From NCBI GenBank assembly GCA_013166835.1, contig JABLTI010000057.1:1-17204 (forward strand): a DNA stretch of 17,204 nucleotides, in the 5' to 3' direction. Shown in pieces: positions 494 through 15,369 of the stretch. The notes beneath the pieces are model-generated. The model made no database searches. It saw nothing but the letters and a program-made list of their open reading frames with translations, and had not been told where the DNA came from. Positions within the stretch are counted from its first letter, which is position 1, and every line of letters begins with the position of its first letter. Origin of the DNA: Promethearchaeati archaeon (GTDB lineage: Archaea > Asgardarchaeota > Heimdallarchaeia > JABLTI01). The position numbers and the translations under genes are program-made.

Positions 494-2272
494 TCATTTT
501 CTTCTCTTTAAGAAGAGAACTTGACTTGCGCCAACAAAAGCTAGTATACTCATGAAAACGATTAAACCGATGCCAGAGACCTCTGTTGTGACTGTGACAT
601 CATAACCTGCTGCAGTCATATGAGCTAGAGCTTGATCAATACTGTAGTCATAAGGTTCTAAAGTTTCATCAAAACCAATGGAGACTTTCGGCCAATGAGT
701 AACACCAGGATAGCCTAAACCATCAAGAATCTCATCAACAATAACTTGTCTTGGAACCATATTACTAATCGCTTTACGAATGTGTTTACCTGATTCTGTA
801 CCTGAAATTGGACAGAGTTCACCAGTACCAATGATTGGATGCATTTGATTAACGGCTAATTCTTGGTTACCTGGCTCAAGAACTTCTGTAGAGTCAATAC
901 TTGCAAGTCCCTGAATATCACCTTGATCTATGTAGAATTCTGAATCAACAAAATCAATGTCACCACCAGCGAGAGCGGAAATAGCTCCTTCTTTATTAGA
1001 ATAGAATTCAAAGTAAATGTCATCGAATTTGGGAGCTGAACCCCAGTAATCATCGAAATAATCATTCACTGTCAAGTGAATTACACCGTTTGTGTCATCC
1101 CAGGAATGAAACTTATATGGACCGAAACCAAAAAGCTTCTCTGGATTGTCTCGTGCCCAAGTGACAGCTTGTTCACCATGATCTGCTGGAGCAGTTGTAT
1201 TCCAAATGTGTGCAGGTATAAGTAGATTGGCTAAATTACCTTCTTGAAACACGTAAGGTTGCAAGAAATTGATAGTAAAGTCATCATCATCGATTTTTAC
1301 CACTGAACTATTATCCCAATAGAATGTATTGTAGGAATAAAGAGTGTGTCCCAAGCTAGCAGTAACAGCTAATTGATAATTATAGATTACATCTTCAACA
1401 GTCACTGGAACTCCATCTGCCCAATAAAGATTTGGTCTAAGTTGACAGTTATAGGTCAATCCATCTGTACTGGTATATGCTTGAAGAGCACGACCAGAGT
1501 AGGTATTATCTGAAGGATCGCGTTCAGCTAAACCATTCCAAATCTGATGTGTCCACTGAGCATCATATGTAGATTCCACTGTCCATACATGGAAATCTTC
1601 AAAATCAGCAGGAACAGCAAAGTGTAGTTCAGATTCACCAGGGATTTCCCAATCTTCCATAGGTTGTTGTGAGGAACCCCATAATAGTGGATCCCAACCA
1701 GTTAGTCCTGGAGTATGAGCGTAAAGAGAAATCTTATAGATTATAGCAATACTTGGTTGATCTTCATAAAGCATTTCTTGTATTTCTTCAGCATATTGTA
1801 TTCTGTCTGCATAGACAAAAGATTGTGTATAATTACTAACAGCCCAATCAAACTCTACATTAGAGTATTGGTAAAAATTATCACCAGCAGGTGTTAACCC
1901 ATCTGTTGTAAATACACCAGTTGGATCAAAATCTAATCCCCAACCGTTTCCAATAAAGAATAAATCATATCCACCTTCGTCGTATGATGGTATTGGATAA
2001 GGTCCTGGGTGTCCCCATGTTCTTGGGGATATTTGAGCCCAACCTGTGTGGTCAAAAACATCTATATTAATTCCAATCTTTGGCAATTGTTCTACCATCA
2101 ATGTTGACCATTGATTTCGTGCCGGATTAGAATTTGGCGCTAATATACTTACTGAGAAAAATGGTCCCGGATTTTTAGCTTCTACTGGTGTCGCTACATA
2201 AGGTATCACCATTACGCTAAAGATGATTATCATTGGAAGAACCAGTCTTCTCGCATTTGTTCTTAGTTTCAA
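494..2272 (-). CDS. ABC transporter substrate-binding protein, family 5 (OppA/DppA-like), C-terminally membrane anchored, circularly permuted domain order
   Basis: Signal peptide; family-5 motifs DGLTYNCQLRPNLYWADGVPVTVEDV, GFGPYKF, HIRKAIS, LPKIGINI, NFYQYSNVEFD and IQEMLYEDQPSI; C-terminal TM helix plus KRRK; TTG start with GAGG RBS. Confidence 0.9.
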   Translation of the reverse strand: MKLRTNARRLVLPMIIIFSVMVIPYVATPVEAKNPGPFFSVSILAPNSNPARNQWSTLMVEQLPKIGINIDVFDHTGWAQISPRTWGHPGPYPIPSYDEGGYDLFFIGNGWGLDFDPTGVFTTDGLTPAGDNFYQYSNVEFDWAVSNYTQSFVYADRIQYAEEIQEMLYEDQPSIAIIYKISLYAHTPGLTGWDPLLWGSSQQPMEDWEIPGESELHFAVPADFEDFHVWTVESTYDAQWTHQIWNGLAERDPSDNTYSGRALQAYTSTDGLTYNCQLRPNLYWADGVPVTVEDVIYNYQLAVTASLGHTLYSYNTFYWDNSSVVKIDDDDFTINFLQPYVFQEGNLANLLIPAHIWNTTAPADHGEQAVTWARDNPEKLFGFGPYKFHSWDDTNGVIHLTVNDYFDDYWGSAPKFDDIYFEFYSNKEGAISALAGGDIDFVDSEFYIDQGDIQGLASIDSTEVLEPGNQELAVNQMHPIIGTGELCPISGTESGKHIRKAISNMVPRQVIVDEILDGLGYPGVTHWPKVSIGFDETLEPYDYSIDQALAHMTAAGYDVTVTTEVSGIGLIVFMSILAFVGASQVLFLKRRK

Positions 2273-2298
2273 TTTTTTTTGCCTCTTGATCTATTATT

Positions 2299-2318
2299 AA
2301 CACACCGGGGAGTGTGTT
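2299..2318 (-). other. Stem-loop in the predicted 5' leader of the substrate-binding protein gene
   Basis: AACACAC-N6-GTGTGTT perfect 7-bp inverted repeat lying between the TATA box (2351-2346) and the RBS. Confidence 0.5.
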
Positions 2319-2331
2319 GTTGTCTATTACA

Positions 2332-2416
2332 TTCTCAATTAGGAGTTATAAGTATTCTCACTATTATGAGAATGAGTTCTATATATATATTAAATTAGTT
2401 CTTGAGTGGTTGAGAA
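2332..2416 (-). promoter_or_regulatory. Promoter and operator array of the substrate-binding protein gene
   Basis: Palindrome ATTCTCA-ctatta-TGAGAAT at 2354-2373. On the minus strand it is followed after 3 nt by TTATAA and then by another TGAGAA half-site (2337-2332). Half-sites start at 2332, 2355, 2377 and 2399. A second, degenerate palindrome TTCTTG-N6-TGAGAA is at 2399-2416. Confidence 0.75.
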
Positions 2417-2538
2417 TTTAATATTGCTTGACTAATAAACCATATTTGAATGTTTAAGGGAAAATGGGGAAGAATTAATTAGAATCCAATTTATGATCAA
2501 TCTTTTTCTAAAACTTTTTTTCTGAAATTGCGAGTAGA

Positions 2539-2573
2539 TTATTTTATAAATTCAGAAAACAATTAAACAGTAA
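2539..2573 (+). repeat. Duplicated promoter segment, copy 1 (TATA-containing)
   Basis: ttattttataaattcagaaaacaattaaacagtaa is identical to 3121-3155. Both copies are followed by attagaggtta (RBS) and a TTG start. Confidence 0.9.
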
Positions 2574-2595
2574 AACAAGATTAGAGGTTATTATA

Positions 2596-3033
2596 TTGAC
2601 TACAACTATTCGTGTACCTCAGAGTTATGCATCACATCATAGTCGTACTGTTGCTCTTCTCCTTTGTTTATTTCTTGGAGGATTTGGGGCTCATCGTTTC
2701 TATGTAGGGAAATCTGGATCCGCTGTTCTTATGCTGATATTATCATTGTGTGGAGTTGGATGGATTTGGTCTTTGATCGACTTAATTATGATTTTAACTG
2801 GATCTTTCACAGATCACTATGGTAGATATGTTACATCTTGGGATGGTGGACCACAACAATCTACTCCAGTTGTTTCTGTAACAACTCGTCCACCACCACA
2901 GCAAGCACCCACACACCCAGTACCACCCCCTCCACAAAAACAAGCAGATGAGATGTTTTGCAATTCATGTGGTGCAATAGCTAAAAAAGATGAAACTTTT
3001 TGTAGGAATTGTGGAGCAGCTTTGCAACACTAG
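2596..3033 (+). CDS. TM2-domain membrane protein with proline-rich linker and C-terminal zinc ribbon, copy 1
   Basis: TM2 signature ALLLCLFLGGFGAHRFYVGK...WSLIDLIMIL; PPP-rich linker; CNSC...CRNC zinc ribbon. Confidence 0.9.
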   Translation: MTTTIRVPQSYASHHSRTVALLLCLFLGGFGAHRFYVGKSGSAVLMLILSLCGVGWIWSLIDLIMILTGSFTDHYGRYVTSWDGGPQQSTPVVSVTTRPPPQQAPTHPVPPPPQKQADEMFCNSCGAIAKKDETFCRNCGAALQH

Positions 3034-3042
3034 AAATATCTC

Positions 3043-3068
3043 TTTTTTTTATTCTTTTTCTTTTTTTT
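3043..3068 (+). terminator. Archaeal-type T-tract terminator
   Basis: Several T5-T8 runs immediately after the stop codon at 3033. Confidence 0.55.
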
Positions 3069-3120
3069 ATTTATTTAACACTATTGTAGATCTATTTTCT
3101 CAAATGTTATATTTGACAGT

Positions 3121-3155
3121 TTATTTTATAAATTCAGAAAACAATTAAACAGTAA
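3121..3155 (+). repeat. Duplicated promoter segment, copy 2
   Basis: 35-bp exact match to 2539-2573. Confidence 0.9.
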
Positions 3156-3175
3156 CAAAATTAGAGGTTATTTAA

Positions 3176-3604
3176 TTGGCAACAACTGTTCATATACAAC
3201 AAAGTAGAGTTTCACATCATAGCCGTACTGTTGCTCTTCTCCTTTGTTTATTTCTTGGAGGATTTGGGGCTCATCGTTTCTATGTAGGTAAGTCTGGATC
3301 CGCGGTTTTTATGTTACTATTGTCGCTCTGTGGATTTGGTTTAATTTGGTGGATAATTGATTTAATTATGATTTTAGCTGGATCGTTCACAGATGACTTT
3401 GGGAGATATGTTTCATCTTGGGATGGTGGACCTCAACAATCTACTCCAGTTGTTTCTGTAACAACTCATCCCCCAGTACAACGAGCACCTCCTCCCCCAC
3501 CCCCACAAAAACAATCTGATGAGATGTTTTGCAATACATGTGGTGGTCTCTGTAAAAAAGCTGAAACATTCTGTCGTAATTGTGGTGCAGCACTCCAACA
3601 TTAA
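3176..3604 (+). CDS. TM2-domain membrane protein with proline-rich linker and C-terminal zinc ribbon, copy 2
   Basis: Close paralog of 2596..3033: same TM2 motif, APPPPPPQ linker, CNTC...CRNC. Confidence 0.9.
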   Translation: MATTVHIQQSRVSHHSRTVALLLCLFLGGFGAHRFYVGKSGSAVFMLLLSLCGFGLIWWIIDLIMILAGSFTDDFGRYVSSWDGGPQQSTPVVSVTTHPPVQRAPPPPPPQKQSDEMFCNTCGGLCKKAETFCRNCGAALQH

Positions 3605-3702
3605 AACCACAAATTACTTCTTTTTTTTTATTCAATTAGAATATAATATAAATCATGATACTAGTTGTTCTTTATAGTTAAAATTCCGATGGTGAGTTAT
3701 AA

Positions 3703-4770
3703 TTGAAAGTTAAATTTCTGGGATTCATTTCAATAATTTTTGGGATTATGTTTTTCTTACAACCTCTTTGTTTATCTGTTGCACAAACATCTACTGAACA
3801 TGATAATTTGTTTACAAATGCTGATGCTATTATAGCAGATCACACGATAGTTAATCGAGTAATGTATGATTTAGTTCCAGAATCAGCTATAAATCACTCT
3901 AAGGAAATTCTACATATTGCATATGGTCACACATCTCACGGCAGTCAAATCATTACTGGTATGAATGATCTCCCAGCTTTCAAGGAAGGCAACGGTGGTT
4001 CTGTTGATCTATATGATTGGAATGAAGGAGGAACTGGAGGAGCTCTCGATATTGATGATGGTTTTGTAGGTGGAGATTTAGGTAATCCTGATAGAACGAC
4101 TTGGGCTTTACTAACAGAAGGTTATCTTGATAATGCGGCTAATTCTGATGTTAATGTTGTTATGTGGTCTTGGTGTGGTCAGGCTTCTAGTGCTACTGAA
4201 GAAGATATCAATACTTATACTTCATTGATGAATGACTTAGAAAATGATTATCCCAGTATCCAATTTGTGTATATGACAGGTCATGTTGATGGTTCTGGTT
4301 TAGAAGGCAACCTCCATATTCGTAATGAACAAATCCGAGAGTATTGTCAAACTAACAGTAAAATTCTCTTTGATTTTGCAGATATTGAATCGTACGATCC
4401 TCATGGCAATTATTTTGGTGACAAGTATTGCACAGATAATTGTGATTATGATTCAAACAACGATACGAATCCCACAAATGATGGCACAAATTGGGCAATC
4501 GAATGGCAAGATGCTCATCCTGGGGATTGGTATACTTGCTCTTCCGCTCATAGTCAACCATTAAATGCAAATATGAAAGCTTATGCAGCTTGGTGGTTAT
4601 GGGCTACTTTAGCAGGATGGGTTGATCCAGATACAACTCCTACTACTCCTGGTTATACTCTAACAAATACCTCTGGTTTATCTTTAGGGTTGGCTTTTAG
4701 TATGATGTTAACATCAATAATCATCTTTATTGTAGTTAGAACAAGTTATCGCAAAAACAGAGTTTACTGA
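3703..4770 (+). CDS. Secreted, C-terminally anchored conserved hypothetical protein, possibly an SGNH-like hydrolase
   Basis: Signal peptide; motifs IAYGHTSHGSQ, WSWCGQ, YMTGH, DFADIES and AHSQPLN; Thr/Pro linker, TM helix and basic tail; GGTGA RBS with TTG start. The hydrolase assignment is tentative. Confidence 0.7.
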   Translation: MKVKFLGFISIIFGIMFFLQPLCLSVAQTSTEHDNLFTNADAIIADHTIVNRVMYDLVPESAINHSKEILHIAYGHTSHGSQIITGMNDLPAFKEGNGGSVDLYDWNEGGTGGALDIDDGFVGGDLGNPDRTTWALLTEGYLDNAANSDVNVVMWSWCGQASSATEEDINTYTSLMNDLENDYPSIQFVYMTGHVDGSGLEGNLHIRNEQIREYCQTNSKILFDFADIESYDPHGNYFGDKYCTDNCDYDSNNDTNPTNDGTNWAIEWQDAHPGDWYTCSSAHSQPLNANMKAYAAWWLWATLAGWVDPDTTPTTPGYTLTNTSGLSLGLAFSMMLTSIIIFIVVRTSYRKNRVY

Positions 4771-4920
4771 TTGTAAGTTCATTTTAGAACGATACAACTA
4801 CTTTCAATTAGATTTGTTCGTTATCCTTTCAGAAAGAGTCACGTTTCATCTTGAATTTTGCAATTTTTCTTTGAGCTAATTTTAGAAAAATTTTTATGTG
4901 TTTTTATCAATTAACATTCG

Positions 4921-6099
4921 GTGGTTAAACGAGTGACTCCTATTAATGAAAATAGTGTTGAAGTAGATAAAGAGGTAATTTTAGAAGAAGATTTATCGAT
5001 TAAATCTGGAGAGACTTTAGACCCAACAGTAATGCAAAAGGAATCCAAATTAGGTTTTTTTGAAAAATTACTTGCAGTATGGGTAGCACTCTGTATGGGT
5101 ATTGGTATTTTGGTATCTATTTATTTGCCAAAATTTGGTGAAACAATAAACAATTGGAATTTATTTGAAACGTGGAGAGGTGGTATAGGCATCAATATAC
5201 CTATTGGTATTTGTTTGTTTTTTATGATGTATCCAGCTATGTTGAATCTTCAATTCAAAGAATTAAAAAAACTCGGTAGAAACCCATTGCCAATAATATT
5301 AACACTTTTTTCTAATTGGATAATAGCTCCATTAGTTGCAGCTGGTTTAGCCTATCTAATTCTTCCAGGAAACTCTGATTTAATTATTGCAGTCATCTTG
5401 TTAGGATCAAGTCCCTGTACTGCCATGGTCTTGGTTTGGGGATCACTTGCTAAAGGTAATCAAGAACAAAATGTGATAAATACAAGTATTAATACTGTAT
5501 CAATTATGTTTCTTTACGTTCCTATTGTCTCATTATTGACTGGAATAGGAAATTTGAGCATCGATAGATTAATACTATTCATCACAGTAACCATCTTTAT
5601 TGGTGCCCCATTAGTTCTTGGACTTTTAAGTAAAGTTCTATTAGTGAAAGCAAAAGGTAAAGAATGGTTTGATACAAAATATCGTCCAGTTGTTGGTAAA
5701 ATTTCTATAGTTGCACTTCTTAGCACGCTGATTATTCTCTTTTCAATCAATGGTAGTAAACTGATTGAATATCCGTTGGAATTACTAAAAGTTTCTGCAC
5801 CACTGCTTATTGGATTCGTCATTGTTGTTGGATTTAATCTTTTAATTACAAAATTATTCCGACTTCAATATCGTGAAGCAATTATTACAACGATCATTGG
5901 CAGTTCGAGTCATTTCGAAATAGCCATAGCAACAGCTCTTGGTATTAGTGCATTAGCTGCTCTTGGTACAACAATGGGGCTTTTCTGGGAAGTACCGATT
6001 ATGCTTGGATTAGTTTATCTTGGAAGATTCCTAAATAAGAAAGGATTTTGGAAAGGAAGAAAGAAGGAAGAAATATTAGTTTCCAATCAAAAAACATAA
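4921..6099 (+). CDS. acr3: Acr3-family arsenite/antimonite efflux transporter
   Basis: About 10 TM segments with Acr3 motifs MMYPAM, NWIIAPL, PCTAMVLVW (conserved Cys) and SSHFEIAIA. Confidence 0.9.
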   Translation: MVKRVTPINENSVEVDKEVILEEDLSIKSGETLDPTVMQKESKLGFFEKLLAVWVALCMGIGILVSIYLPKFGETINNWNLFETWRGGIGINIPIGICLFFMMYPAMLNLQFKELKKLGRNPLPIILTLFSNWIIAPLVAAGLAYLILPGNSDLIIAVILLGSSPCTAMVLVWGSLAKGNQEQNVINTSINTVSIMFLYVPIVSLLTGIGNLSIDRLILFITVTIFIGAPLVLGLLSKVLLVKAKGKEWFDTKYRPVVGKISIVALLSTLIILFSINGSKLIEYPLELLKVSAPLLIGFVIVVGFNLLITKLFRLQYREAIITTIIGSSSHFEIAIATALGISALAALGTTMGLFWEVPIMLGLVYLGRFLNKKGFWKGRKKEEILVSNQKT

Positions 6100-6253
6100 G
6101 AAATTGCAGATACTTAACAGGTAGATTTACTCTACATGATCTTTTTTCTTTTATTAAACTAAGAAGAAATAGTTCAAACAGCTACTAGAAATTCATCTAA
6201 AAAATGAAAATATAAAGTTTAAATCTCTTGATCTAAACTTATCATCATTTGTT

Positions 6254-6880
6254 TTAACCATTATAACAATCTTTTATGACATCTTGAATGTCATATTTCA
6301 AACACAATGCAATCCAACCAACAAATTCTTTTACAGCGCTTATTCCTTTCCAATCTAGATCTGCGAATTGCTCTAGTACTTCAGGTTCAGCATGTTCTAG
6401 TAACTCAACAAATAACAGATGCTTTTCGATATCGAATCTATTTGCGATTTCTGTGAAACAAATTCCACAACCTCTTTTCTTATCAAAAATACTGCTTAGG
6501 ATCAACTTAGCTACTTCAAATTCAGCTCGTATTTCACCATCTTCGAATTTCTTTGGTTTTTTTGTAATAAAGACCTTTGCTGCTCGAGAATAAATTGTCT
6601 CGCTAATTAGAATCCCTTCATCTACAGAGGTAATTCGTTTACCTGCTTTGGCAATTAATCCAAGTTTAAGCAATTTGCTTAAATAGCGATATAAGGTTTT
6701 TTCTGATTTTTCTTTACCATGCTTCTCGAAGGCTTCTTTAATATCTGTTATTGTTAGTGGACCTTTTGCTAAAATCTTCAATACCCATGCTAAGTTTTCA
6801 TCACTGAAAGACATTGATTGTTTATCATTTAGTATGAGAATTGCTTTTTGTTTGTATGTTATTGCTTGTTGTTTTAGCAT
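6254..6880 (-). CDS. Winged helix-turn-helix (ArsR-like) transcriptional regulator 1 with helical C-terminal domain
   Basis: VLKILAKGPLTITDIKEAF...KSEKTLYRYLSKLLKLGLIAKAG wHTH pattern; AGGTGA RBS; paralog of 7344..7988; contains CGIC. Confidence 0.85.
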   Translation of the reverse strand: MLKQQAITYKQKAILILNDKQSMSFSDENLAWVLKILAKGPLTITDIKEAFEKHGKEKSEKTLYRYLSKLLKLGLIAKAGKRITSVDEGILISETIYSRAAKVFITKKPKKFEDGEIRAEFEVAKLILSSIFDKKRGCGICFTEIANRFDIEKHLLFVELLEHAEPEVLEQFADLDWKGISAVKEFVGWIALCLKYDIQDVIKDCYNG

Positions 6881-6904
6881 TTTTCAATCACCTACCGATT
6901 TATT

Positions 6905-7011
6905 TTCTTATTTTAATTACAATTTATTCTTAATCCTATGATATATTGGGTCTCAAACATTTAAAAACCTTTTCTCACATCTGTGAGAATCTTTATATAT
7001 CATTCTGAGAA
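6905..7011. promoter_or_regulatory. Divergent promoters with operator array, module 1
   Basis: Palindrome TTCTCAC-atct-GTGAGAA at 6972-6989, TATA box TTATATAT at 6993-7000, TGAGAA at 7006-7011. Further half-sites: TTCTTA 6905, TTCTTA 6927, GTCTCA 6950. Minus-strand TTTAAAT between 6950 and 6972 is a candidate TATA box for regulator 1. Confidence 0.8.
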
Positions 7012-7051
7012 TAATATCCTACACGAAAGATGCACTTGGGGTGTGTATTTA

Positions 7052-7084
7052 TCCTGATAGAATCAAGTATTGAGGATATCAGGA
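7052..7084 (+). other. RBS-overlapping hairpin in the leader of peptide A
   Basis: TCCTGATA-gaa-TCAA-gta-TTGA-gga-TATCAGGA. The 3' arm includes the first bases of the AGGAGGTGA RBS. Confidence 0.55.
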
Positions 7085-7094
7085 GGTGAAAAAA

Positions 7095-7181
7095 TTGAGA
7101 CATGACAAAAAGATCAAACAAATAATCAAGAAAGAAAAAGAAAGAGCAAGAATAAAATTTGCACTCTATACTGGAAGATAA
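7095..7181 (+). CDS. Small peptide A, 28 aa: MRHDKKIKQIIKKEKERARIKFALYTGR
   Basis: Strong RBS AGGAGGTGA 5 nt before TTG; upstream TATA box; same length and C-terminus as peptide D (8460..8546). Confidence 0.8.
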   Translation: MRHDKKIKQIIKKEKERARIKFALYTGR

Positions 7182-7215
7182 ATAACGATAAAACAAAGAG
7201 GAGTTGTTATTTATC
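7177..7215 (+). terminator. Stem-loop overlapping the peptide A stop codon (terminator or 3' stabiliser)
   Basis: GATAAATAAC (7177-7186) and GTTATTTATC (7206-7215) form a perfect 10-bp inverted repeat, extendable with G-U pairs. Confidence 0.5.
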
Positions 7216-7343
7216 GCCCATCTTTATCTATTAATGGTTTTAATGAAATCTTTTGGACGAAAAATTCTTCTCAAAAAACCGATTTTTATAATGTAAGATT
7301 AACTCAACCTTAATAGCTATAAGAAAAGAAGTGGGAAAAGGAC

Positions 7344-7988
7344 TTATTTTACGAAAATTTGCTCAAGATCTCTAGCTATATCTTGTTCGGGGATTATTGC
7401 TAACCAACCAATATATTGCAAGAGAAAATTGATACCCTGATAGTCAAGTTGAGCTACTTTCTCAAGTGTTTCATCTTTAGCATTCTCGAATAAATTAACG
7501 ACTAATTCATCTCGATCCTTATCCAGCTTATTAGCGAATTTAACAAATTCCTTCTCCGAAGCATTTTTCCCAAAATACTCGCTTAGAAGTAGTCTCGTTG
7601 CTTCCCAGACGGAATTGGCTCCTTTTTTATCAGATCCTGGTTCAGTAACAGGTGCAACAGTAATAAAGGCTATCGCAGAGCGTGTATAAATTGTTTCAGA
7701 AGTAAGATTGTCTGATGTTTTTGAGGTTATCCTTTTTCCTGCTTTAGCCACAAGTTTTACTTCTAGTAATTTGTGTAAATATCTGTAGATCGATTTATCA
7801 GATTTCTCGATGCCAATTTTCCTAAAGGATTCTTCCAAATCCCCGATGGTCATTGGTTCTTTTCTTAGAAATTTCAAAACATATCCTAGATTTTCATCCT
7901 TAAAAAGATCGAGAGTTTCTTTGTCTCGGATAATAATTACTGGTTTTTGTTTAAAAGTAATAACATTCTTGGGATCTGTAACTGCCAT
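7344..7988 (-). CDS. Winged helix-turn-helix (ArsR-like) transcriptional regulator 2
   Basis: VLKFLRKEPMTIGDLEESF...KSDKSIYRYLHKLLEVKLVAKAGKRITS. Shares IT[FY]KQK, DENL, AKAGKRITS, SETIY and GW[IL]A with regulator 1; AGGAG RBS. Confidence 0.85.
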   Translation of the reverse strand: MAVTDPKNVITFKQKPVIIIRDKETLDLFKDENLGYVLKFLRKEPMTIGDLEESFRKIGIEKSDKSIYRYLHKLLEVKLVAKAGKRITSKTSDNLTSETIYTRSAIAFITVAPVTEPGSDKKGANSVWEATRLLLSEYFGKNASEKEFVKFANKLDKDRDELVVNLFENAKDETLEKVAQLDYQGINFLLQYIGWLAIIPEQDIARDLEQIFVK

Positions 7989-8059
7989 TTGTTTTGTCTC
8001 CTTCTCTTAAAGAGATATTTTACTAATAATATAAAATCTTAATCAGTCTAATTGTTAGT

Positions 8060-8188
8060 TTCTTATCTATATAATAAATAGTTTCTCAATGTTTATAAAT
8101 ATTATTCTTAATGATGTAATTTTCCACTCTCTTATAGGTGAACTCAAGTTCTCACTATAATGAGAACCCTTATATACTGGTATGAGAA
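8060..8188. promoter_or_regulatory. Divergent promoters with operator array, module 2
   Basis: Palindrome TTCTCA-ctataa-TGAGAA at 8149-8166, TATA box TTATATA at 8170-8176, TGAGAA at 8183-8188. Half-sites at 8060 (TTCTTA), 8083 (TTCTCA), 8105 (TTCTTA) and 8127 (degenerate CTCTCT). Confidence 0.8.
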
Positions 8189-8228: not shown

Positions 8229-8330
8229 TTGAAAGAGAAGAAAAATATCACCACAGATAAAGATGGAAAGAAAGATAGTGAAAAAGTCAAGATTCTCTTG
8301 GCTATGTTTTACTCAGATGGATTGATATAA
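8229..8330 (+). CDS. Small peptide B, 33 aa: MKEKKNITTDKDGKKDSEKVKILLAMFYSDGLI
   Basis: GGGTGA RBS, A-run and TTG, the same start context as peptide A; first ORF after the TATA box; charged N-terminus and hydrophobic C-terminus. Confidence 0.65.
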   Translation: MKEKKNITTDKDGKKDSEKVKILLAMFYSDGLI

Positions 8331-8356
8331 TCACACTGTTCGTGGAGGAAACCACA

Positions 8357-8428
8357 ATGAAAGATCACAGAAATCTTAAAGGCCAAATCAAGAAGGAATT
8401 AACTCCCATCAAGAGAGTTACAAAATAA
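8357..8428 (+). CDS. Small peptide C, 23 aa: MKDHRNLKGQIKKELTPIKRVTK
   Basis: GGAGGA RBS (8344-8349) 7 nt before ATG; N-terminus resembles peptide A (IKKE). Confidence 0.5.
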   Translation: MKDHRNLKGQIKKELTPIKRVTK

Positions 8429-8459
8429 AAAGAATCGGTAGAATGGAGGAATCACGCTG

Positions 8460-8546
8460 ATGCAAAAAAAGCAAGAGCACAAAAAGAAAATCCAAGCAGA
8501 TAAAAATAAAACCAGAATGAAATTCGCACTATTTACAGGCAGATAA
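8460..8546 (+). CDS. Small peptide D, 28 aa: MQKKQEHKKKIQADKNKTRMKFALFTGR
   Basis: GGAGGA RBS (8445-8450); C-terminal RMKFALFTGR matches RIKFALYTGR of peptide A with synonymous codon differences. Confidence 0.8.
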   Translation: MQKKQEHKKKIQADKNKTRMKFALFTGR

Positions 8547-8550
8547 GAAC

Positions 8551-8611
8551 GCTCCTTCCATGGGGAGTGCTCCTTATCTCCCTTTCTGGTATTATTTTTT
8601 GGGGAAGAGAT
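8551..8611 (+). terminator. GC-richer hairpin(s) after the peptide cluster
   Basis: GCTCCTT-ccat-GGGGAGT (8551-8568, with G-U pairs) and ATCTC-CC...GGGG-aa-GAGAT (8576-8611) around a T-rich stretch. Confidence 0.4.
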
Positions 8612-8639: not shown

Positions 8640-8671
8640 AATATGTCACTTAAGAAATTCTTAAATGATGA
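8640..8671 (+). promoter_or_regulatory. Conserved promoter motif of surface-protein paralog 1
   Basis: aatatgtcacttaagaaattcttaaatgatga is 25/32 identical to 10699-10730; contains TTAAAT; begins 67 nt before ATG 8707. Confidence 0.7.
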
Positions 8672-8706
8672 ATTTCTCACGTTTAGATAGTAATAGGTGT
8701 TTTCCT

Positions 8707-9684
8707 ATGAACCGAAAAATTAAGATTTTGATGTTGACTAAAATAGTACTTGTACTATTTCTTATTGGTAATTATACCACAACCCTTGCTGCTGATAGAG
8801 AATGGCACGTAGGAGACATTTTTACTTTTACTGACTCAATACATCAGATTATCACCGACCATGACATTGAATTCGATTCACAAGATACAACCGAAATTGT
8901 AGTGCAAGATGCATTTACTTATAATATTACCGAAATCAATTTACTAACCGGAAGGTATTGGGCTTTTATGACTGATACATCTGGTGCAGGAAGCATTATC
9001 GGTTATAATTTTACTATTGATGACTACGTTAGCACCTACATTGATAATATCAATACAGCTCTAACAGTTGATTACGAATGGGACTATGGCACAAATAGCA
9101 CAAAATTAGTTGATTTTGGCTTTGGTCTTGCTATTTGGTTACTAATTGAACCTGATTGGGCAAAACTCAATACTGCTTTTATTGATATGTTTAATGAAAC
9201 AGAAATCATAGAGACAGTTGCAGATCCTTATCAACCAATTACTTACAATTTTACTCTTGGAGATTTCCTAAGTTCAATTTCCTATACTTTCATGGGTAAA
9301 GATAATCTTGCAGACGCTAAAAAACAAATGAAATCTGACACCACTGAATGGAGTCTAGTATTTGATTTGACTAATGTCATTTATACAGATGTATTAAATG
9401 GAACTCTTGGATACGATGAGTATTATCCATATCCGAATGCGATTTTCACCTATGAAATGGGTTACTCAAAAGGCGGTGTTTTGCAAAGAGCTCACACGAA
9501 AATTGATTATAGTGTTCTTCAGGGCAATTATAGAGGTGATGTTTATATGAAGATCCTCACAATTTTTGGAGATCTCGAAGCTCTAACCGGTAATTTTGCT
9601 TATTGGATGGCAGTTCCAGGATTTCTGTTAATTGTGGCGGTTGTGCGAATTGCTAAACGAAAATCAAATAGGAGGAATAGGTGA
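8707..9684 (+). CDS. Membrane-anchored surface protein, paralog 1 (start revised from 8665)
   Basis: AGGTG RBS before ATG 8707; MNRKIKILML matches MSKKIRILML of paralog 3; signal peptide; shared motifs YEWDY, LLIEPDW, ADPYQPI, MGK; C-terminal TM helix plus basic tail. Confidence 0.8.
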   Translation: MNRKIKILMLTKIVLVLFLIGNYTTTLAADREWHVGDIFTFTDSIHQIITDHDIEFDSQDTTEIVVQDAFTYNITEINLLTGRYWAFMTDTSGAGSIIGYNFTIDDYVSTYIDNINTALTVDYEWDYGTNSTKLVDFGFGLAIWLLIEPDWAKLNTAFIDMFNETEIIETVADPYQPITYNFTLGDFLSSISYTFMGKDNLADAKKQMKSDTTEWSLVFDLTNVIYTDVLNGTLGYDEYYPYPNAIFTYEMGYSKGGVLQRAHTKIDYSVLQGNYRGDVYMKILTIFGDLEALTGNFAYWMAVPGFLLIVAVVRIAKRKSNRRNR

Positions 9685-9689
9685 TTCAA

Positions 9690-10649
9690 ATGAAAACTAA
9701 AAATAAACTTATCTTTGTTCTATCTTTTGTCTCAATAATTCTTCTATTTAGTACCTTTACAAATGCGAATGCAGCTGAAGCCCCATGGGCTGATGGAAGT
9801 ATATTTACTTGGGCTGCTGAAGATGGTATAATCCTTCATACAGTTGATTACGAAGCAGATATTGAGCAAATTATTGAATCCCGTTCAGGATCATTATTCA
9901 CTTATAATCTAACAGATGTGGATAATAGCACATTAACCTATGATTATGATGTGCTTGGAATACTCGGTGTTGGCGGTATTACTTCCTATGACGTGCAAGC
10001 CTTCATTGGATCATTCTCCCTTGGAAGTATGTTCACAGTAAGTTATGTTTGGGACTATGAATACAATATAACAGTGTTGGACACATTTGGATTTACACTA
10101 CCATATTGGTTATTGATAGAACCAAATTGGACAACCGTTAATAGTAAATTTAATGAAGAATTCAACGGTAGTACAATAATGGACACTGTTGCAGATCCAT
10201 ACCTACCTCTTATCCATAATTTTACATTGAATGATTTGCTTAATGACGCTAATTCTTTTTCAATTATGGGTAAAAGCACCTTAGCAGAAGCTAAACAACA
10301 ATTCACCCCCTCAACAACCAGATGGACATTCGAGTTTGATTACTCAAATGTTTTGCTAACAGGTAGATTCAATTCCACAGCTGGTTACAACAACTACTAT
10401 AAATACGAAGTGCTAACTGAACAAGCTACTCTAGAATATAACGCTAATGGGGTTCTCAAATATTATGAAGATAATGGAGAAGTACAAGAAACATATATGG
10501 ATAGAATGATTAGCATAAAGTACAATTTCTACATCAATTTAGGCGACTTTCTCACAACAGAGACATCCCCATTCTGTTTTCTAATAGCAATTCCTGCTGT
10601 AGCAAGTATGGTCATTTTTGTGAAATGGATGAATAAGAGAAAGAATTAA
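9690..10649 (+). CDS. Membrane-anchored surface protein, paralog 2 (start ATG 9690 or GTG 9681)
   Basis: AGGTGA-N5-ATG; signal peptide; YVWDY, LLIEPNW, ADPYLPL, MGK, WTFEFD; TETSPF followed by TM helix and KRKN. Confidence 0.8.
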   Translation: MKTKNKLIFVLSFVSIILLFSTFTNANAAEAPWADGSIFTWAAEDGIILHTVDYEADIEQIIESRSGSLFTYNLTDVDNSTLTYDYDVLGILGVGGITSYDVQAFIGSFSLGSMFTVSYVWDYEYNITVLDTFGFTLPYWLLIEPNWTTVNSKFNEEFNGSTIMDTVADPYLPLIHNFTLNDLLNDANSFSIMGKSTLAEAKQQFTPSTTRWTFEFDYSNVLLTGRFNSTAGYNNYYKYEVLTEQATLEYNANGVLKYYEDNGEVQETYMDRMISIKYNFYINLGDFLTTETSPFCFLIAIPAVASMVIFVKWMNKRKN

Positions 10650-10698
10650 TCTCTTGTTTCTTCATTTTTTCTGCTTTTTTTTCTTTTGATTCTCCTTA

Positions 10699-10730
10699 AA
10701 TATGTCGTGTTAGGAATTCTTATATGAGGA
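10699..10730 (+). promoter_or_regulatory. Conserved promoter motif of surface-protein paralog 3
   Basis: aatatgtcgtgttaggaattcttatatgagga, with TTATAT; begins 67 nt before ATG 10766. Confidence 0.7.
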
Positions 10731-10765
10731 TGCTATCTAATCTAATTAGTGTTTAGGTGATGCTT

Positions 10766-11734
10766 ATGAGCAAAAAAATTAGGATTTTGATGTTGATCAA
10801 TGCAATTGCAGCTATGATTTTAGTAAGCAGTATTAGCACTGCCCAAGCTGTTCCACCAGGTTGGAATGCTGGCGACATAATTGTCTGGGGCATGAGGAAT
10901 ACAACAAAAGCTTCGACTTATGAAGAAGGTGAAGATGTTTTAGGTTCAGAAGTTACTATGAATAACGATCTTGAATATAATGTAACCGCACTTGATACTT
11001 TAAACAGGGAATTTGATGCTATTGAGACTGATGCTAGCGGTTCAACTTTTAGAGATAATAAAGACTATGGTGCTGCCGAGTTTGTAAGTGATGAGCTAGA
11101 TCTTTATGATTTCTTCAGTGTTAATTATGTCTGGGATTACGTAAACAATGTCTCAGTTTGCACCAGCTTTGATGCATATTTCTTTGACAGTTTCATTTCG
11201 ATTTATTTCTTAATTGAACCAGACTGGGCCATAATAAACGATGGTTACGTAGACATGTTTAATACTTCAGTAGTTATGGATACACTAGCTGATCCATATC
11301 AACCAATCATTTACAATTATACACTTGGAGACATTATTGATGCAATTTCTATGAAAATAATGGGTAAAAACGAACTTAGTTCTGCCATCAATCAATTCAC
11401 AGATACCGTGAGAAAATGGACTTTTGAATTTGACCTCAGCGGTTACATAAAAAATGGTCAATTTAATGGTACAGATATAATCTACTATGATTATGAAGAA
11501 TACAAAATCTACGTTGAATTAGAATACACTAAAGAAGGTGTGTTGGATCGATTAGAATATAGTTTTATTGACAAAATAACCATTAATGATGTAACTAATG
11601 AGTTTGATTACAAAGAAGTAATTGCACAAGGTGGTATGAAAGCTGCTGCAGCAAACTTCGCGACTTTCGCAGCTATAGGCGGTCTCGTCTCCACAGCGTT
11701 AATTGCTATTTTCATCAAACGTAAGAAGAAGTGA
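10766..11734 (+). CDS. Membrane-anchored surface protein, paralog 3 (start revised from 10757)
   Basis: AGGTGA-N5-ATG; signal peptide; YVWDY, FLIEPDW, ADPYQPI, MGK, WTFEFD; ANF followed by TM helix and KRKKK; T-tract downstream. Confidence 0.8.
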   Translation: MSKKIRILMLINAIAAMILVSSISTAQAVPPGWNAGDIIVWGMRNTTKASTYEEGEDVLGSEVTMNNDLEYNVTALDTLNREFDAIETDASGSTFRDNKDYGAAEFVSDELDLYDFFSVNYVWDYVNNVSVCTSFDAYFFDSFISIYFLIEPDWAIINDGYVDMFNTSVVMDTLADPYQPIIYNYTLGDIIDAISMKIMGKNELSSAINQFTDTVRKWTFEFDLSGYIKNGQFNGTDIIYYDYEEYKIYVELEYTKEGVLDRLEYSFIDKITINDVTNEFDYKEVIAQGGMKAAAANFATFAAIGGLVSTALIAIFIKRKKK

Positions 11735-11891
11735 ATTTTTAATTCCACTTTTTTCTTTTTTCTTTTCTCTTTTGCCTTAATCTGAAGTTATTTTAAAGTT
11801 CTTCACATTTTATTCATTAAGGATCAATTGATCTACGAAAAACCAATTCATACGAGTGGATTTTATGAACTGGAGCCTGAGGAAATAGACG

Positions 11892-14800
11892 ATGTTTTCA
11901 AAAATTAGATCATATTTTATTATATTTATAATCCTAGCTACCCCCCTAAATTCATTATTTTTGAGCATGTTAGTAGCAAGTCCTAACTCAAGCTCCGCTA
12001 TACTTTCGAATGATTATATTGAAGGTACAGGAGATTTATCTCCGAATGCAGAGAATGGATTACTTTGGAGTTCCATTTCCGGATTAACAGGAGAGTTAAC
12101 TACTTCTCCGATAATTGACTTTAATACCGAGAGTGAATTAATGCAAATAGTCTACATTGGAACAGAAATTGGATTAACAAAAATACAAGTAGAAACTGGG
12201 AACATCTATTGGACTCATCCTACTCCTGGAGCTATACTTAGTATAACTCCAGTTGAGGACATAACAGGTGATAATAATAAAGAAATCCTTGTAACAGTTG
12301 ATAATCAAGAATTCAACAATACTGAAATGTTAAATGGTTTAACTGGAGAAATCATTTGGTCACATCGTCCAACAGAGACCGTTTGGCAAGAAGGTATAGG
12401 TTTTTCACAACAAGAAACGCGAACTTGGTCTGGTTTGCTCATAGAAGACATTTCTGGTGATGGAACTAGAGATGTGTTGGTTTCATCATATAAATCAGTC
12501 TTTGCCTTAGATGCAGAAGATGGTTCAGTATTATGGCAACAAAGTGCTTCTAATGATGTCTGGAATACTGAATTAATGGATGATGATGTAGATTCGGATG
12601 GATATGATGATATTGTAATAGGTTCACAAGATGGTGAGCTAATGCTTCTCAGTGGAGAAGATGGTTCAATTATCTGGGAAATTATTGCTGCAGAGGAAGC
12701 GAGATATATCGATCAAACTCAAGGTATCGAATATACCTTTGATCGCAATGTATATGATGTTCGCAAGTGTTTTGACATGAATGGTGATGGTAAGAAAGAT
12801 ATTCTCACTACAGATGAGAACGGTTATTGTGCAATTTATGATGTCATTTCAGGCGAACTAATTGATCGAGTACTTGCTTATAGTAGGACCGGACCTGAAA
12901 CAGATCAGGCTTCTTTTGGCAGCAAAGATTTCTATAATCCTATGTCAATGGATGTTGTCGATGATTATGGATTGACAAAAGTCCTTACTGCTGCACGTTC
13001 AGATGCTGTTTTTAGTAATCTCACACTCTCTCTTCTAAATCTAGGGATGAATGATCTATATGTTGATTGGAGTATTTCATCTGTCAATATTGAAGATGTT
13101 AGAAGTATTGCAACAAGCGTAGCGACGGAAGGTAATGGAACTTATACTAAAATGATTATTCCCACAGGAATCATGGGTTCTTCACAATTTGAGAGAACAA
13201 TAGAAGTATATGCTCTATTCAACAACTCTATGATAGCTCAATGGAATCTCACAGTGTTAAATACTGAAAGCGATTTTCAGTTAGACTTTGGAGATACCTC
13301 AGAAGGCCAATACCCATTTAGTGGCAATCATGCATTCTTCGTTAGAGATTTTCAAGGATCACCAGAGGAAGAAGTGCTTATTTATCTAGCAGGATACGGT
13401 TTATATCTCCTAGATGGAGATACCGGAGATTTACTATGGAGTCAAATAAAATCAGCAAAAGTAAAAATCGAACCCTATTTTGATGTTAATTCCGATTCAA
13501 CCATTGATATACTAAGAAAAGAATACTATTATCTTGACCAGTACAGTACTAGTCGTTTCCGTATACCAAGGATAACTATGATTAGTGGCGATTCCGGCGA
13601 AACAATTTGGGATCATGAAATAGATTATGAAGATCGAGAATTAGTAGGTGGAGGATACTTAAGCATTCTACAAGCGGAAGATATTACAAATGATTCAATT
13701 CCTGATTTATGGCTTGCTCAGCAAGAATATGATAACTGGGAATTTAATCTGGTTAATGTTTCAAAAGTCAAATTACTAGACGGTGCTACTGGAGCCATTG
13801 TTTGGGAATCATTACCAGCTAATAGTTCAAAGGTATACTCTCAAGAGCAAATGAGATTAACGTCGATATCTCCTATTGCTGATCAAGATAATGATGAAAT
13901 TCAAGATATTTTAATAGGATGTCAAAGAAGTTACATTTATTGTAGGAGTGGTTTTGATGGGGCACTAATCTGGAATATTACTCGAGAAGCAGCACCTTTT
14001 GATCCACATTATAGAAATTGGATTCCATATACCCCACTTATTTCCGGTGTTGGGAACATACAAGGAAATACCACAGATGATTTTGTAATTCTGGGTGATG
14101 GGCAAGTACAATTAGTTGATTCTGATAATTTCACAACAGTTATGTGGTTATGGTTTAATCCACTTGGTTGGATTGATGAGCAAAATTTTAAAATCCATAT
14201 AAATTGGGCTCAGAATGAATTATTCGCTATTTTTACCATTAATAAAAATGATAAACAATATACAGCTTTTATCGATCTTGTCACTGGAACTTTGGATCAT
14301 GAAATTCTTGGGGAAATGAATCAATTCAATATTCAATTCTTTGCTGCTGATTTTAATTTAGATGGAACAAATGATCATTTACTATACCGACCTTATGGTA
14401 GTGAAGATTTTACGGAAGGAACATACATTATCAATGGAATCACTGGTAGTGTCTTAAGTTTTTATTCAACCTTTTACCCGCAATTTGAACGCTGGTATTG
14501 GCTTGTTGATCAACTCTACAGATTTGGAGCTGATAGTTTCGTAGATGTATACGAAGATGTAAACTCCGATGGAATTCCTGAAATTGTCTCTGGTTTTTCC
14601 ATTGGCAAGCATAATAAGGAAGATCTAGGCCAAGGAATGGCTGTAGAAATAATTGATGTCTCGACGATAAATCCAGATGTTATAAAATATGAATTCGTAA
14701 AAATAGAGAAAGATCAATATTCATCCCCACCACTTTTACCTGCTGGTTATACTCGGACTATTGGTGATGTAACTGGTGACGGAAAAGCAGAGATTCTTAT

Positions 14801-15362
14801 CTCTTTAGTTACTCCAGAAGGAGAATTTAAGACAATAATATTAGATATTTCGAAGGATGGTGGAGTTTGGAAGGAAATCACTGATATTGTCTATGACTCA
14901 ATAATTCCAGCAGAACTTAATGGAACATTAGATGGAGATTTAGTTCTTTGTGATCTTAATGGACGAATTAGAGCTTTAGATAATGAGTTTGCTGTCACAA
15001 TTACAGATTTCCAAGTAATTCAACAAGGAGTTGGACAATACTACCTAGAGTGGAGTAGTAATGCAGAGAATGTAATGTCTAAAATCTTTATTGATCATGA
15101 AGTAGTATCAACTGTGTTCACTTCAGAAGCAGAAATTTTCTTGAGTGGTGGAGAGCACAATCTAACTATTTCAGTTAGTGATCGAAATGGAATAAGTGCT
15201 TTTACTAACATGATAGTTTCAATTGATAGAGGTGGTGGGTTGCTAATAGTATGGATAGCGGTGGGAGTACTAACTATTGGTTTTGTTGGATTGAAATTAT
15301 TCTTCAGATTTAAACGGAAAGAAGACTTAACGGACTTCGGTCCAGATAGAGGAGGAACGTGA
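11892..15362 (+). CDS. Large single-pass surface protein with FG-GAP/VCBS-like Ca-binding and PQQ-like beta-propeller repeats
   Basis: About 12 D-x-[NTD]-x-D-G-like loops (DITGDNNKEILV, DISGDGTRDVLV, DVDSDGYDDIVI, DMNGDGKKDILT, DVTGDGKAEILI and others) alternating with [TD]G-x-[IVL]-[ILV]-W motifs; beta-rich Ig-like segment; C-terminal TM helix and short tail. Confidence 0.82.
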   Translation: MFSKIRSYFIIFIILATPLNSLFLSMLVASPNSSSAILSNDYIEGTGDLSPNAENGLLWSSISGLTGELTTSPIIDFNTESELMQIVYIGTEIGLTKIQVETGNIYWTHPTPGAILSITPVEDITGDNNKEILVTVDNQEFNNTEMLNGLTGEIIWSHRPTETVWQEGIGFSQQETRTWSGLLIEDISGDGTRDVLVSSYKSVFALDAEDGSVLWQQSASNDVWNTELMDDDVDSDGYDDIVIGSQDGELMLLSGEDGSIIWEIIAAEEARYIDQTQGIEYTFDRNVYDVRKCFDMNGDGKKDILTTDENGYCAIYDVISGELIDRVLAYSRTGPETDQASFGSKDFYNPMSMDVVDDYGLTKVLTAARSDAVFSNLTLSLLNLGMNDLYVDWSISSVNIEDVRSIATSVATEGNGTYTKMIIPTGIMGSSQFERTIEVYALFNNSMIAQWNLTVLNTESDFQLDFGDTSEGQYPFSGNHAFFVRDFQGSPEEEVLIYLAGYGLYLLDGDTGDLLWSQIKSAKVKIEPYFDVNSDSTIDILRKEYYYLDQYSTSRFRIPRITMISGDSGETIWDHEIDYEDRELVGGGYLSILQAEDITNDSIPDLWLAQQEYDNWEFNLVNVSKVKLLDGATGAIVWESLPANSSKVYSQEQMRLTSISPIADQDNDEIQDILIGCQRSYIYCRSGFDGALIWNITREAAPFDPHYRNWIPYTPLISGVGNIQGNTTDDFVILGDGQVQLVDSDNFTTVMWLWFNPLGWIDEQNFKIHINWAQNELFAIFTINKNDKQYTAFIDLVTGTLDHEILGEMNQFNIQFFAADFNLDGTNDHLLYRPYGSEDFTEGTYIINGITGSVLSFYSTFYPQFERWYWLVDQLYRFGADSFVDVYEDVNSDGIPEIVSGFSIGKHNKEDLGQGMAVEIIDVSTINPDVIKYEFVKIEKDQYSSPPLLPAGYTRTIGDVTGDGKAEILISLVTPEGEFKTIILDISKDGGVWKEITDIVYDSIIPAELNGTLDGDLVLCDLNGRIRALDNEFAVTITDFQVIQQGVGQYYLEWSSNAENVMSKIFIDHEVVSTVFTSEAEIFLSGGEHNLTISVSDRNGISAFTNMIVSIDRGGGLLIVWIAVGVLTIGFVGLKLFFRFKRKEDLTDFGPDRGGT

Positions 15363-15369
15363 TAAAACA

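Follow-up and report, generated by a model that had tools for sequence, protein, structure and literature searches.

A palindrome of two hexamers, TTCTCA-N6-TGAGAA, is probably the operator of a lineage-expanded family of PH1932-like regulators in an Asgard archaeon and would act by repression through promoter occlusion. We arrive at this reading by comparing the sequence of contig JABLTI010000057.1 (Promethearchaeati archaeon, Heimdallarchaeia; assembly GCA_013166835.1) with the rest of its genome and with 61 related genomes, in which homologues were sought. The window referred to below is this whole contig, 17,204 nucleotides (nt) long and called C143 here, from an assembly of 3,557,936 bases in 260 contigs with 33.7% G+C. 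In the window, the palindrome lies at the promoters of two micropeptide operons, each facing a divergent gene for a winged helix-turn-helix (wHTH) protein of about 210 amino acids (aa), and at the promoter of a gene for a family-5 solute-binding protein.

Three promoters and a rare palindrome

The three promoters are built alike, with the palindrome followed by a TATA box and a third half-site. Their elements are the following:

Peptide promoter 1, plus strand: TTCTCA 6972-6977, TGAGAA 6984-6989, TTATATA 6993-6999, TGAGAA 7006-7011
6972..6989, no strand: its predicted operator, the palindrome; the same 18-mer stands in the orthologous loci of G007 and G003
6992..7011, plus strand: its TATA box (6992-6999) and third half-site (7006-7011)
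Peptide promoter 2, plus strand: TTCTCA 8149-8154, TGAGAA 8161-8166, TTATATA 8170-8176, TGAGAA 8183-8188
8149..8166, no strand: its predicted operator, the palindrome
8170..8188, plus strand: its TATA box (8170-8176) and third half-site (8183-8188)
Binding-protein promoter, minus strand: TTCTCA 2372-2367, TGAGAA 2360-2355, TTATAA 2351-2346, TGAGAA 2337-2332
2355..2372, no strand: its proximal predicted operator, exact TTCTCA-N6-TGAGAA, among the best-conserved blocks of eight aligned upstream regions
2346..2351, minus strand: its TATA box TTATAA, 3 nt past the palindrome; a TATA-like run stands there in 6/6 orthologous promoters with an exact palindrome
2332..2337, minus strand: third half-site TGAGAA, past the TATA box and ahead of the point where transcription of the binding-protein gene is expected to start; kept in G007 and G003
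2399..2416, no strand: distal imperfect predicted operator, 44 bp from the proximal one, with a half-site TGAGAA at 2411

The initial annotation, made from the letters of the window, had placed these motifs at 6972, 8149 and 2372-2332, and all positions and spacings are exact in the sequence. The 17/18 identity it claimed for the palindromes at 2355 and 8149 is equally correct, the two being a single spacer base apart. From the first to the second TGAGAA the distance is 22, 22 and 23 nt in the three promoters. Across the genus, 30 of the 34 cases of a palindrome with a TATA box have a half-site-like hexamer 15–17 nt past the palindrome, and three of the four exceptions are binding-protein promoters; the post-TATA half-site lies 6–8 nt after the TATA box. 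The palindrome ends 3 nt ahead of the TATA box, at the position of the transcription factor B (TFB) recognition element (BRE). In the tRNA promoters of this genome (18 upstream regions) the BRE is a purine-rich, CGAAAG-like run directly before an A/T-rich TATA box. Comparison with these promoters bears out the earlier claim that the right half-site occupies the BRE position, where the operator promoters have GAGAA plus three variable bases, unlike the CGAAAG-like tRNA run.

The exact N6 palindrome occurs 12 times in the 3.56-Mb genome, three times inside the 17-kb window alone. All 12 copies are intergenic, within the 13.6% of the genome that is free of open reading frames (ORFs) of at least 120 aa, where 30 second-order Markov simulations of the intergenic DNA predicted 0.23 copies on average and 1 at most. 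Whole-genome simulations (n = 6) yielded a mean of 2.0 palindromes, and the reversed, non-complemented control pattern occurs once in the genome. One-mismatch sites are mildly enriched between genes (9 vs 4.4 expected), with 18 in ORFs vs roughly 30 expected. The genome-wide scan for the palindrome followed by N3 and TTATA, proposed in the initial annotation, returned only five matches: the three window sites, C21:25293 (+) and C21:35189 (−). It had also been considered that the motif might stand at most promoters of the genome. Because its copies are few (12 exact and 9 near-exact intergenic sites) and 0/18 tRNA promoters have the palindrome, the motif is restricted and a general promoter element can be ruled out.

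Outside the window, exact sites are found at unrelated promoters on seven other contigs (C21, C40, C43, C47, C63, C237 and C247), all of them intergenic. The flanking genes include those for nitroreductase, AlaX-like, nucleotidyltransferase, metallo-β-lactamase-fold, LVIVD, PEMT-like, radical SAM and FtsX permease proteins, and a second family-5 binding protein is encoded downstream of the exact site at C21:35172. As a separate observation, the 18-mer of the 6972 palindrome, spacer included, is also present at G019:C4:21140 and G017:C67:13012, in two genomes of another family that gave no regulator match at E ≤ 1e-8.

The site and the PH1932-like regulators

The two regulators of the window and the half-site arrays in front of them are:

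6254..6880, minus strand: wHTH regulator 1, 208 aa, PH1932-like; HTH_5 E 3.9e-6; member of the family alignment
7344..7988, minus strand: wHTH regulator 2, 214 aa, PH1932-like; AlphaFold2 (AF2) model and Foldseek; homologues in 41/61 related genomes
6905..6955, no strand: phased upstream half-sites TTCTTA 6905, TTCTTA 6927 and GTCTCA 6950 across regulator 1's own promoter, in steps of 22, 23 and 22 bp to the palindrome
8060..8110, no strand: phased half-sites 8060, 8083 and 8105 around the TATA-like run 8092-8099 that faces the regulator 2 gene

Pfam gave only weak wHTH families for regulator 1 and no match for regulator 2. A profile built from 36 homologues matched PH1932 of Pyrococcus horikoshii (1uly_A) with an E value of 2.3e-10, pairing query residues 15-207 with residues 3-180 of the chain, so that the homology extends across both domains; a single regulator sequence reached only E 0.033 against 1uly. 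The AF2 model of regulator 2 (predicted local distance difference test score 90.9, predicted template modeling score 0.81) has the fold of an N-terminal winged helix and a C-terminal helical bundle. Foldseek with this model retrieved 1uly (E 2.4e-10, TM 0.60/0.66) and 2cwe (E 1.7e-9), and the next matches were two-domain PadR/VanR proteins, SmtB/CzrA and Phr at E values of about 1e-3 (Phr E 1.3e-3). Searching a public genome collection with a single regulator protein gave four loci, all from Candidatus Heimdallarchaeota. In this genome, tblastn detected further paralogues on C21 (two in tandem), C247, C208 (two), C215, C77 and C210. Those on C21 and C247 have the same cassette of palindrome, TATA box and half-site in their divergent region, followed by small ORFs; these modules of regulator, promoter and peptide genes are paralogous, and there are four of them in the genome. 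Across the alignment of 36 homologues, the recognition helix hardly varies (K62, S63, I67, Y68, Y70 and L74), which fits one common half-site.

The site goes with the regulator family. Thirty loci in the related genomes (L001-L030) hold 45 regulator genes, of which 10 were excluded (5 that come second in a tandem, 5 for which the locus includes less than 150 nt upstream). Within 250 nt upstream of the remaining 35, an N6 palindrome matching at 12/12 positions was found in 17 cases and at 11/12 positions in 8 (25/35 together), compared with 3 and none, respectively, in 296 control windows of the same loci. In three families of the class, the distance from the site to the regulator gene downstream of it is 77–182 nt. 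The genomes of the genus hold 12, 4, 10, 12, 7, 11, 0, 11, 5, 6 and 8 exact N6 sites and 0–2 copies of the reversed pattern each; the ten with regulators account for the counts of 4–12. The genome with zero N6 sites, G006 (82% complete), has zero N5 sites as well, and no regulator was found in it with a single protein at E ≤ 1e-8 or with the profile at E ≤ 0.01. The length of the spacer also follows the regulator tree: it is N5 in 5/5 members of the C247-type clade and in 5/7 of the family f2 clade, and N6 in the other clades. N5 requires 4 changes on the tree compared with a shuffled mean of 9.3, and 0/500 shuffles were as low.

A second regularity concerns the arrangement of half-sites. Ahead of the palindrome, hexamers of the same orientation follow one another in 22-bp steps (6905/6927/6950/6972; 8060/8083/8105/8149; 25227 to 25293 on C21), shortened to 21 bp where C247 has its region of the N5 type. 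The orientation of the half-sites flips at the centre of the palindrome. In 31 oriented promoter regions of the genus, hexamers stand at distances of 22, 44, 66 and 88 nt (±1) in 18, 20, 13 and 6 cases, whereas shuffling predicts about 1 per bin; none occur at 11, 33, 55 or 77 nt. The regulator's own TATA-like run is placed between two half-sites, for example 8092-8099 between 8083 and 8105, and the divergent promoter therefore mirrors the cassette of the target gene.

Based on these comparisons, the adjacent PH1932-like regulators are the likely binders of the palindrome. The initial annotation had attributed binding to the local wHTH proteins: co-occurrence, the tracking of spacer and clade, and G006 speak for this attribution at the level of the family, and the part that does not stand is the naming of a specific binder among some eight paralogues.

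Target genes of the predicted operator

The genes and features linked to the three promoters are:

494..2272, minus strand: family-5 solute-binding protein of 592 aa; signal-like segment at the N-terminus, membrane anchor at the C-terminus; PF00496 E 3e-44, residues 266-561
7095..7181, plus strand: micropeptide gene, 28 aa from TTG, with the family's C-terminal motif at its end; GGAGGTG Shine-Dalgarno 7 nt before the TTG
8229..8546, plus strand: three small ORFs, 8229-8330 (33 aa), 8357-8428 (23 aa) and 8460-8546 (28 aa)
8549..8575, plus strand: stem-loop after the peptide operon, then a T-run; fold no better than shuffles (z −0.93)
8665..17204, plus strand: three paralogous membrane-anchored proteins, a 1156-aa beta-propeller protein, and an ABC-2 type ATPase and permease

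Orthologues of the binding protein (62–86% identity) are encoded in a regulator neighbourhood in G007, G003, G004, G005, G009, G010 and G001, with a fragment in G008. Eight such syntenic loci have upstream sequence; in six of them the palindrome is exact and the TATA box comes 3 nt after it, and in the remaining two (G010 and G001) an 11/12 palindrome lies further upstream, accompanied by extra copies of TTCTCA and by a TGAGAAT just past the TATA box. Aligning these eight upstream regions shows conservation at the palindrome, at another, distal half-site, around the TATA box, and at the ribosome-binding site together with its run of A. A half-site-like hexamer with at most one mismatch stands 44–45 nt upstream in this genome (G000), G007, G003, G004 and G005. 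At non-syntenic paralogue loci the exact site was found in 0/11 cases. The initial annotation had assigned the binding-protein gene to the same regulon as the peptides, and with the site at 8/8 syntenic orthologues this assignment agrees well; because palindrome and TATA box are kept in the syntenic orthologues, its membership in the regulon, as read from sequence, is conserved. A regulator gene is the immediate neighbour of the binding-protein gene in G009, G010 and G001, and the 4.6-kb gap in the window is due to intervening genes for TM2 proteins, a secreted protein and an ACR3-like transporter. In G010, G001 and G008, the genes next after that of the binding protein, in the same orientation, encode paralogous membrane-anchored proteins, and in G010 the propeller gene comes after these.

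Domain and fold of the binding protein are those of SBP_bac_5. Foldseek retrieved NikZ, AppA, MppA and OppA with E values of 1e-14 to 5e-17, covering about 370–400 of the 592 residues, and the ligands of the closest solved relatives comprise nickel, peptides, sugars (mannosides), sialic acid, opines and EDTA. All NCBIfam equivalogs scored far below their cut-off (best 68.8 vs 650). No OppBCDF-type permease gene lies beside the binding-protein gene, on C143 or on the adjoining C247; the genome's 12 BPD_transp_1 matches are spread over eight other contigs. Ahead of the SBP_bac_5 match, residues 35-215 (1628-2170, minus strand) form a stretch of about 180 highly conserved residues, for which Pfam, applied to these residues alone, gave nothing relevant. 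The SBP_bac_5 match lacks the last 86 profile positions, and residues 131-187 align below threshold to the C-terminal end of the SapA model; a circular permutation of the binding protein is possible. A short hairpin (z −2.0) in the 5′ leader of the gene (2296-2314, minus strand) is kept in G007 and G003, and G004 and G005 have a different hairpin at the same place.

The 28-aa products of the peptide operons are strongly basic and belong to a lysine-rich family with a conserved C-terminal motif. By eye, no export signal was recognizable in the micropeptide sequences; no predictor was applied. The profile of the family matches in 11/11 other genomes of family f1 (two genera), with 1–13 copies per genome, and hardly at all in the rest of the 61 genomes; this genome has 10 matches. 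Orthologues of the micropeptide gene at 7095-7181 are present in G007, G003 and G004. In G010, G001 and G008 the operator promoter precedes three other small ORFs whose C-termini are conserved as well. Looking up the micropeptide in a protein atlas gave no usable match. Copies at C59:21836-22095, C253:41602-41688 and C123:3647-3736, some in tandem, have a different conserved upstream element that ends in a TATA box, and the palindrome is absent there. TTG starts at 2272, 7095 and 8229 come after a purine-rich, Shine-Dalgarno-like run and 5–8 A, compared with GTG at the start of the paralogous small-ORF set on C21.

Several contigs of a sediment RNA library match these genes; they show neither strand, ends nor level, the library may contain DNA, and some contigs differ by 2–10% and come from relatives. 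Three of them match the binding-protein gene (552-987, 1228-1423 and 1569-1786, with 1–4 differing letters each), and one spans all three small ORFs (8242-8539, 2 differing letters). The contigs that match genes for membrane proteins further downstream show 2–7% difference and are probably from relatives. Two RNA runs contained only small shares of the words (0.11 and 0.05).

Some further features were noted around these operons. A G+C-rich stem-loop ends each micropeptide operon (8549-8575 in the window, about 25705-25730 on C21, and in L054, L057 and L058); its sequence varies by lineage with position and pairing kept, and hairpins of differing sequence are found in G010, G001 and G008. The leader of the first micropeptide gene (7012-7094, plus strand) folds better than shuffles (z −2.8), with a stem that ends in the Shine-Dalgarno region. 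At 8650-8664, a 15-bp palindrome of inverted half-site-like words sits immediately in front of the first membrane-anchored paralogue, touching its start codon. The genes at 2596-3033 and 3176-3604 (plus strand) encode 79%-identical paralogues with a TM2 domain, a proline-rich linker and a C-terminal zinc ribbon. Rfam gave no matches at the gathering threshold over the whole window. The first 144 bases of the window equal the last 144 of C247, and its last 144 (17061-17204) equal part of C61 (100% over 48 aa each). These overlaps suggest that C247, C143 and C61 are probably neighbours, which would place the fourth module of regulator, operator and micropeptide about 4 kb before the window.

Proposed mode of action, rival explanations and related systems

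In the mechanism that we infer, a regulator dimer would bind the palindrome so that the promoter-proximal half-site, separated by 3 nt from the TATA box, covers the BRE position. Additional dimers, each on one good half-site, would align every 22 bp (21 bp for the N5 paralogue) on one face of the DNA, and each TATA box, that of the target gene and the divergent one of the regulator, would end up between two half-sites. Exclusion of TATA-binding protein (TBP), TFB and RNA polymerase would result in repression and the regulators would autoregulate; a ligand sensed by the C-terminal domain would relieve the repression. The regulon would comprise the micropeptide operons, the binding-protein gene and, judging from their downstream position, the genes for surface proteins and the ABC-2 proteins. 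Repression is backed by analogy to two regulators: according to the available parts of the respective reports, TrmBL1 bound downstream of the TATA box blocks recruitment of RNA polymerase (PMC4706686) and Phr is a palindrome-binding negative regulator (PMC10746257).

A number of observations weigh against this mechanism or limit its reach. The palindrome is located upstream of the TATA box, and TrmBL1 activates from upstream sites (PMC4706686, in the part available). In G004, G005 and G009, the binding-protein promoter lacks the third half-site. Ten of the 35 regulator genes have no N6 site of at least 11/12 within 250 nt upstream, some carrying N5 instead. The related genomes are kin, so that our counts are not independent and overstate independence, and the peptide promoters are paralogous copies whose likeness is partly inherited. 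Other exact sites flank unrelated genes, which leaves the regulon without a single functional theme. Finally, about eight paralogues have a common recognition helix, and any of them may bind a given site.

The same regulators could use the same site as activators, with the palindrome in place of a weak BRE and the dimer recruiting TFB and TBP, which we consider unlikely. It would agree with the palindrome directly upstream of the TATA box, with GAGAA plus three variable bases instead of the CGAAAG-like run at the BRE position, and with the RNA-library contigs that cover the binding-protein gene and the peptide operon. Precedents exist, as far as the available text of the two reports goes, in TrmBL1, which activates when bound upstream of BRE/TATA (PMC4706686), and in TFB-RF1, which activates promoters with a weak BRE (PMC5937170). 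However, a proximal half-site 3 nt from the TATA box leaves no free BRE, a half-site lies between TATA box and expected start in 30/34 cases, and in-phase half-sites flank both divergent TATA boxes, an arrangement that fits coating of the promoter better than recruitment.

It is very unlikely that duplicated promoter cassettes or a dispersed repeat, with inherited likeness and no common regulation, account for the sites. Although the four modules in the genome are clearly paralogous and the spacers at 2355 and 8149 are 17/18 identical in this genome only, the binding-protein promoter lies outside the modules and keeps palindrome and TATA box at 62–86% protein identity where the flanks have diverged. 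Spacer bases vary between orthologues with the half-sites kept, and the intergenic sites at unrelated promoters on seven other contigs as well as G006, with neither regulator found nor site, speak against it too. Equally improbable is binding by a different, unlinked transcription factor with incidental adjacency of the wHTH genes. The genome does encode many other DNA-binding proteins, but the site is found 77–182 nt upstream of regulator genes in three families, is absent where no regulator was found, and changes its spacer together with the half-site period (N5/21 bp, N6/22 bp) according to regulator clade. Both explanations are disfavoured because of the conserved binding-protein promoter, G006 and the covariation of spacer and clade.

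The initial annotation had further expected the binding protein to capture the micropeptides. We found no support for this: the ligands of its relatives are mixed, no permease lies beside it, in three genomes its gene heads genes for membrane-anchored proteins and not those of a peptide importer, and the micropeptides show no recognizable export signal by eye. Many additional copies of the micropeptide family, such as those on C59, C253 and C123, stand behind another promoter. Predicting a complex of binding-protein residues 34-566 (19-row alignment) with a 31-aa micropeptide ORF (9 rows) gave values of 0.00 and 0.02 against a mark of 0.32, which speak neither for nor against capture. A complete peptide autoinduction circuit, in which the micropeptides would be exported by the ABC-2 proteins, recaptured by the orphan binding protein and sensed by the PH1932-like repressors, releasing the phased arrays, appears quite doubtful. 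If true, such a circuit would amount to an archaeal counterpart of Rgg/SHP or PrgX/PrgZ that operates from a TATA/BRE promoter.

Rgg/SHP, PlcR/PapR and PrgX/PrgZ are peptide-sensing circuits of Firmicutes. As in these circuits, the regulator gene is divergent from a very short peptide gene with a palindrome in its promoter, so that a short peptide gene stands next to a regulator and beneath a site associated with it; as with PrgZ, an OppA-family binding protein without its own permease is in the same regulon; and an ABC-2 type exporter is encoded nearby. In contrast, the regulator here has no TPR (tetratricopeptide repeat)-type peptide-binding domain, and there were no RRNPP or TPR structures among its listed Foldseek matches. 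The peptides here are strongly basic and hydrophilic, the host is an Asgard archaeon with a TATA/BRE promoter, and any secretion, processing or import of the peptides is hypothetical. The likeness to Rgg/SHP or PrgX/PrgZ, drawn by analogy, is one of layout only.

The nearest relative by structure is PH1932 (PDB 1ULY, 2CWE; ArsR-like), which is homologous over the full length and has the same N-terminal wHTH and C-terminal helical domain. It differs in its identity of only about 20%, and the family described here has about eight copies per genome, an inferred operator and a regulon. In the available text of the literature naming PH1932 we found neither a function nor a DNA site, only the family name. 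Among the papers listed by literature searches, those on the two hexamers in archaea were unrelated by title and abstract, and those on Asgard promoters had nothing on the motif. To our knowledge, no Asgard archaeal transcription factor with a defined binding site has been described. The palindrome also differs from what we take to be the motifs of TrmBL1 and Phr. Like Phr of Pyrococcus furiosus (PDB 2P4W) and TrmBL1, the regulators are wHTH proteins with a palindromic site at the core promoter, and the block of the basal machinery by Phr (PMC10746257) and by TrmBL1 downstream of TATA (PMC4706686), as given in the available parts of these reports, is what we propose here too. Unlike in those systems, the palindrome is on the BRE side, extra half-sites occur every 21–22 bp across two divergent promoters, and the targets are micropeptide genes and a solute-binding protein. 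A core-promoter operator of an archaeal repressor is thus of a familiar kind, and what is new is the inferred site of the regulator family, the phased arrays over divergent promoters, the micropeptide targets and the Asgard host. It would be the first inferred DNA site for the PH1932 family, whose structure has been solved since 2004. With a micropeptide family tied to a surface binding protein, peptide signalling becomes testable in the closest archaeal relatives of eukaryotes, and regulator family, operator, phased architecture and conserved regulon are stated precisely enough for direct testing in an Asgard archaeon.

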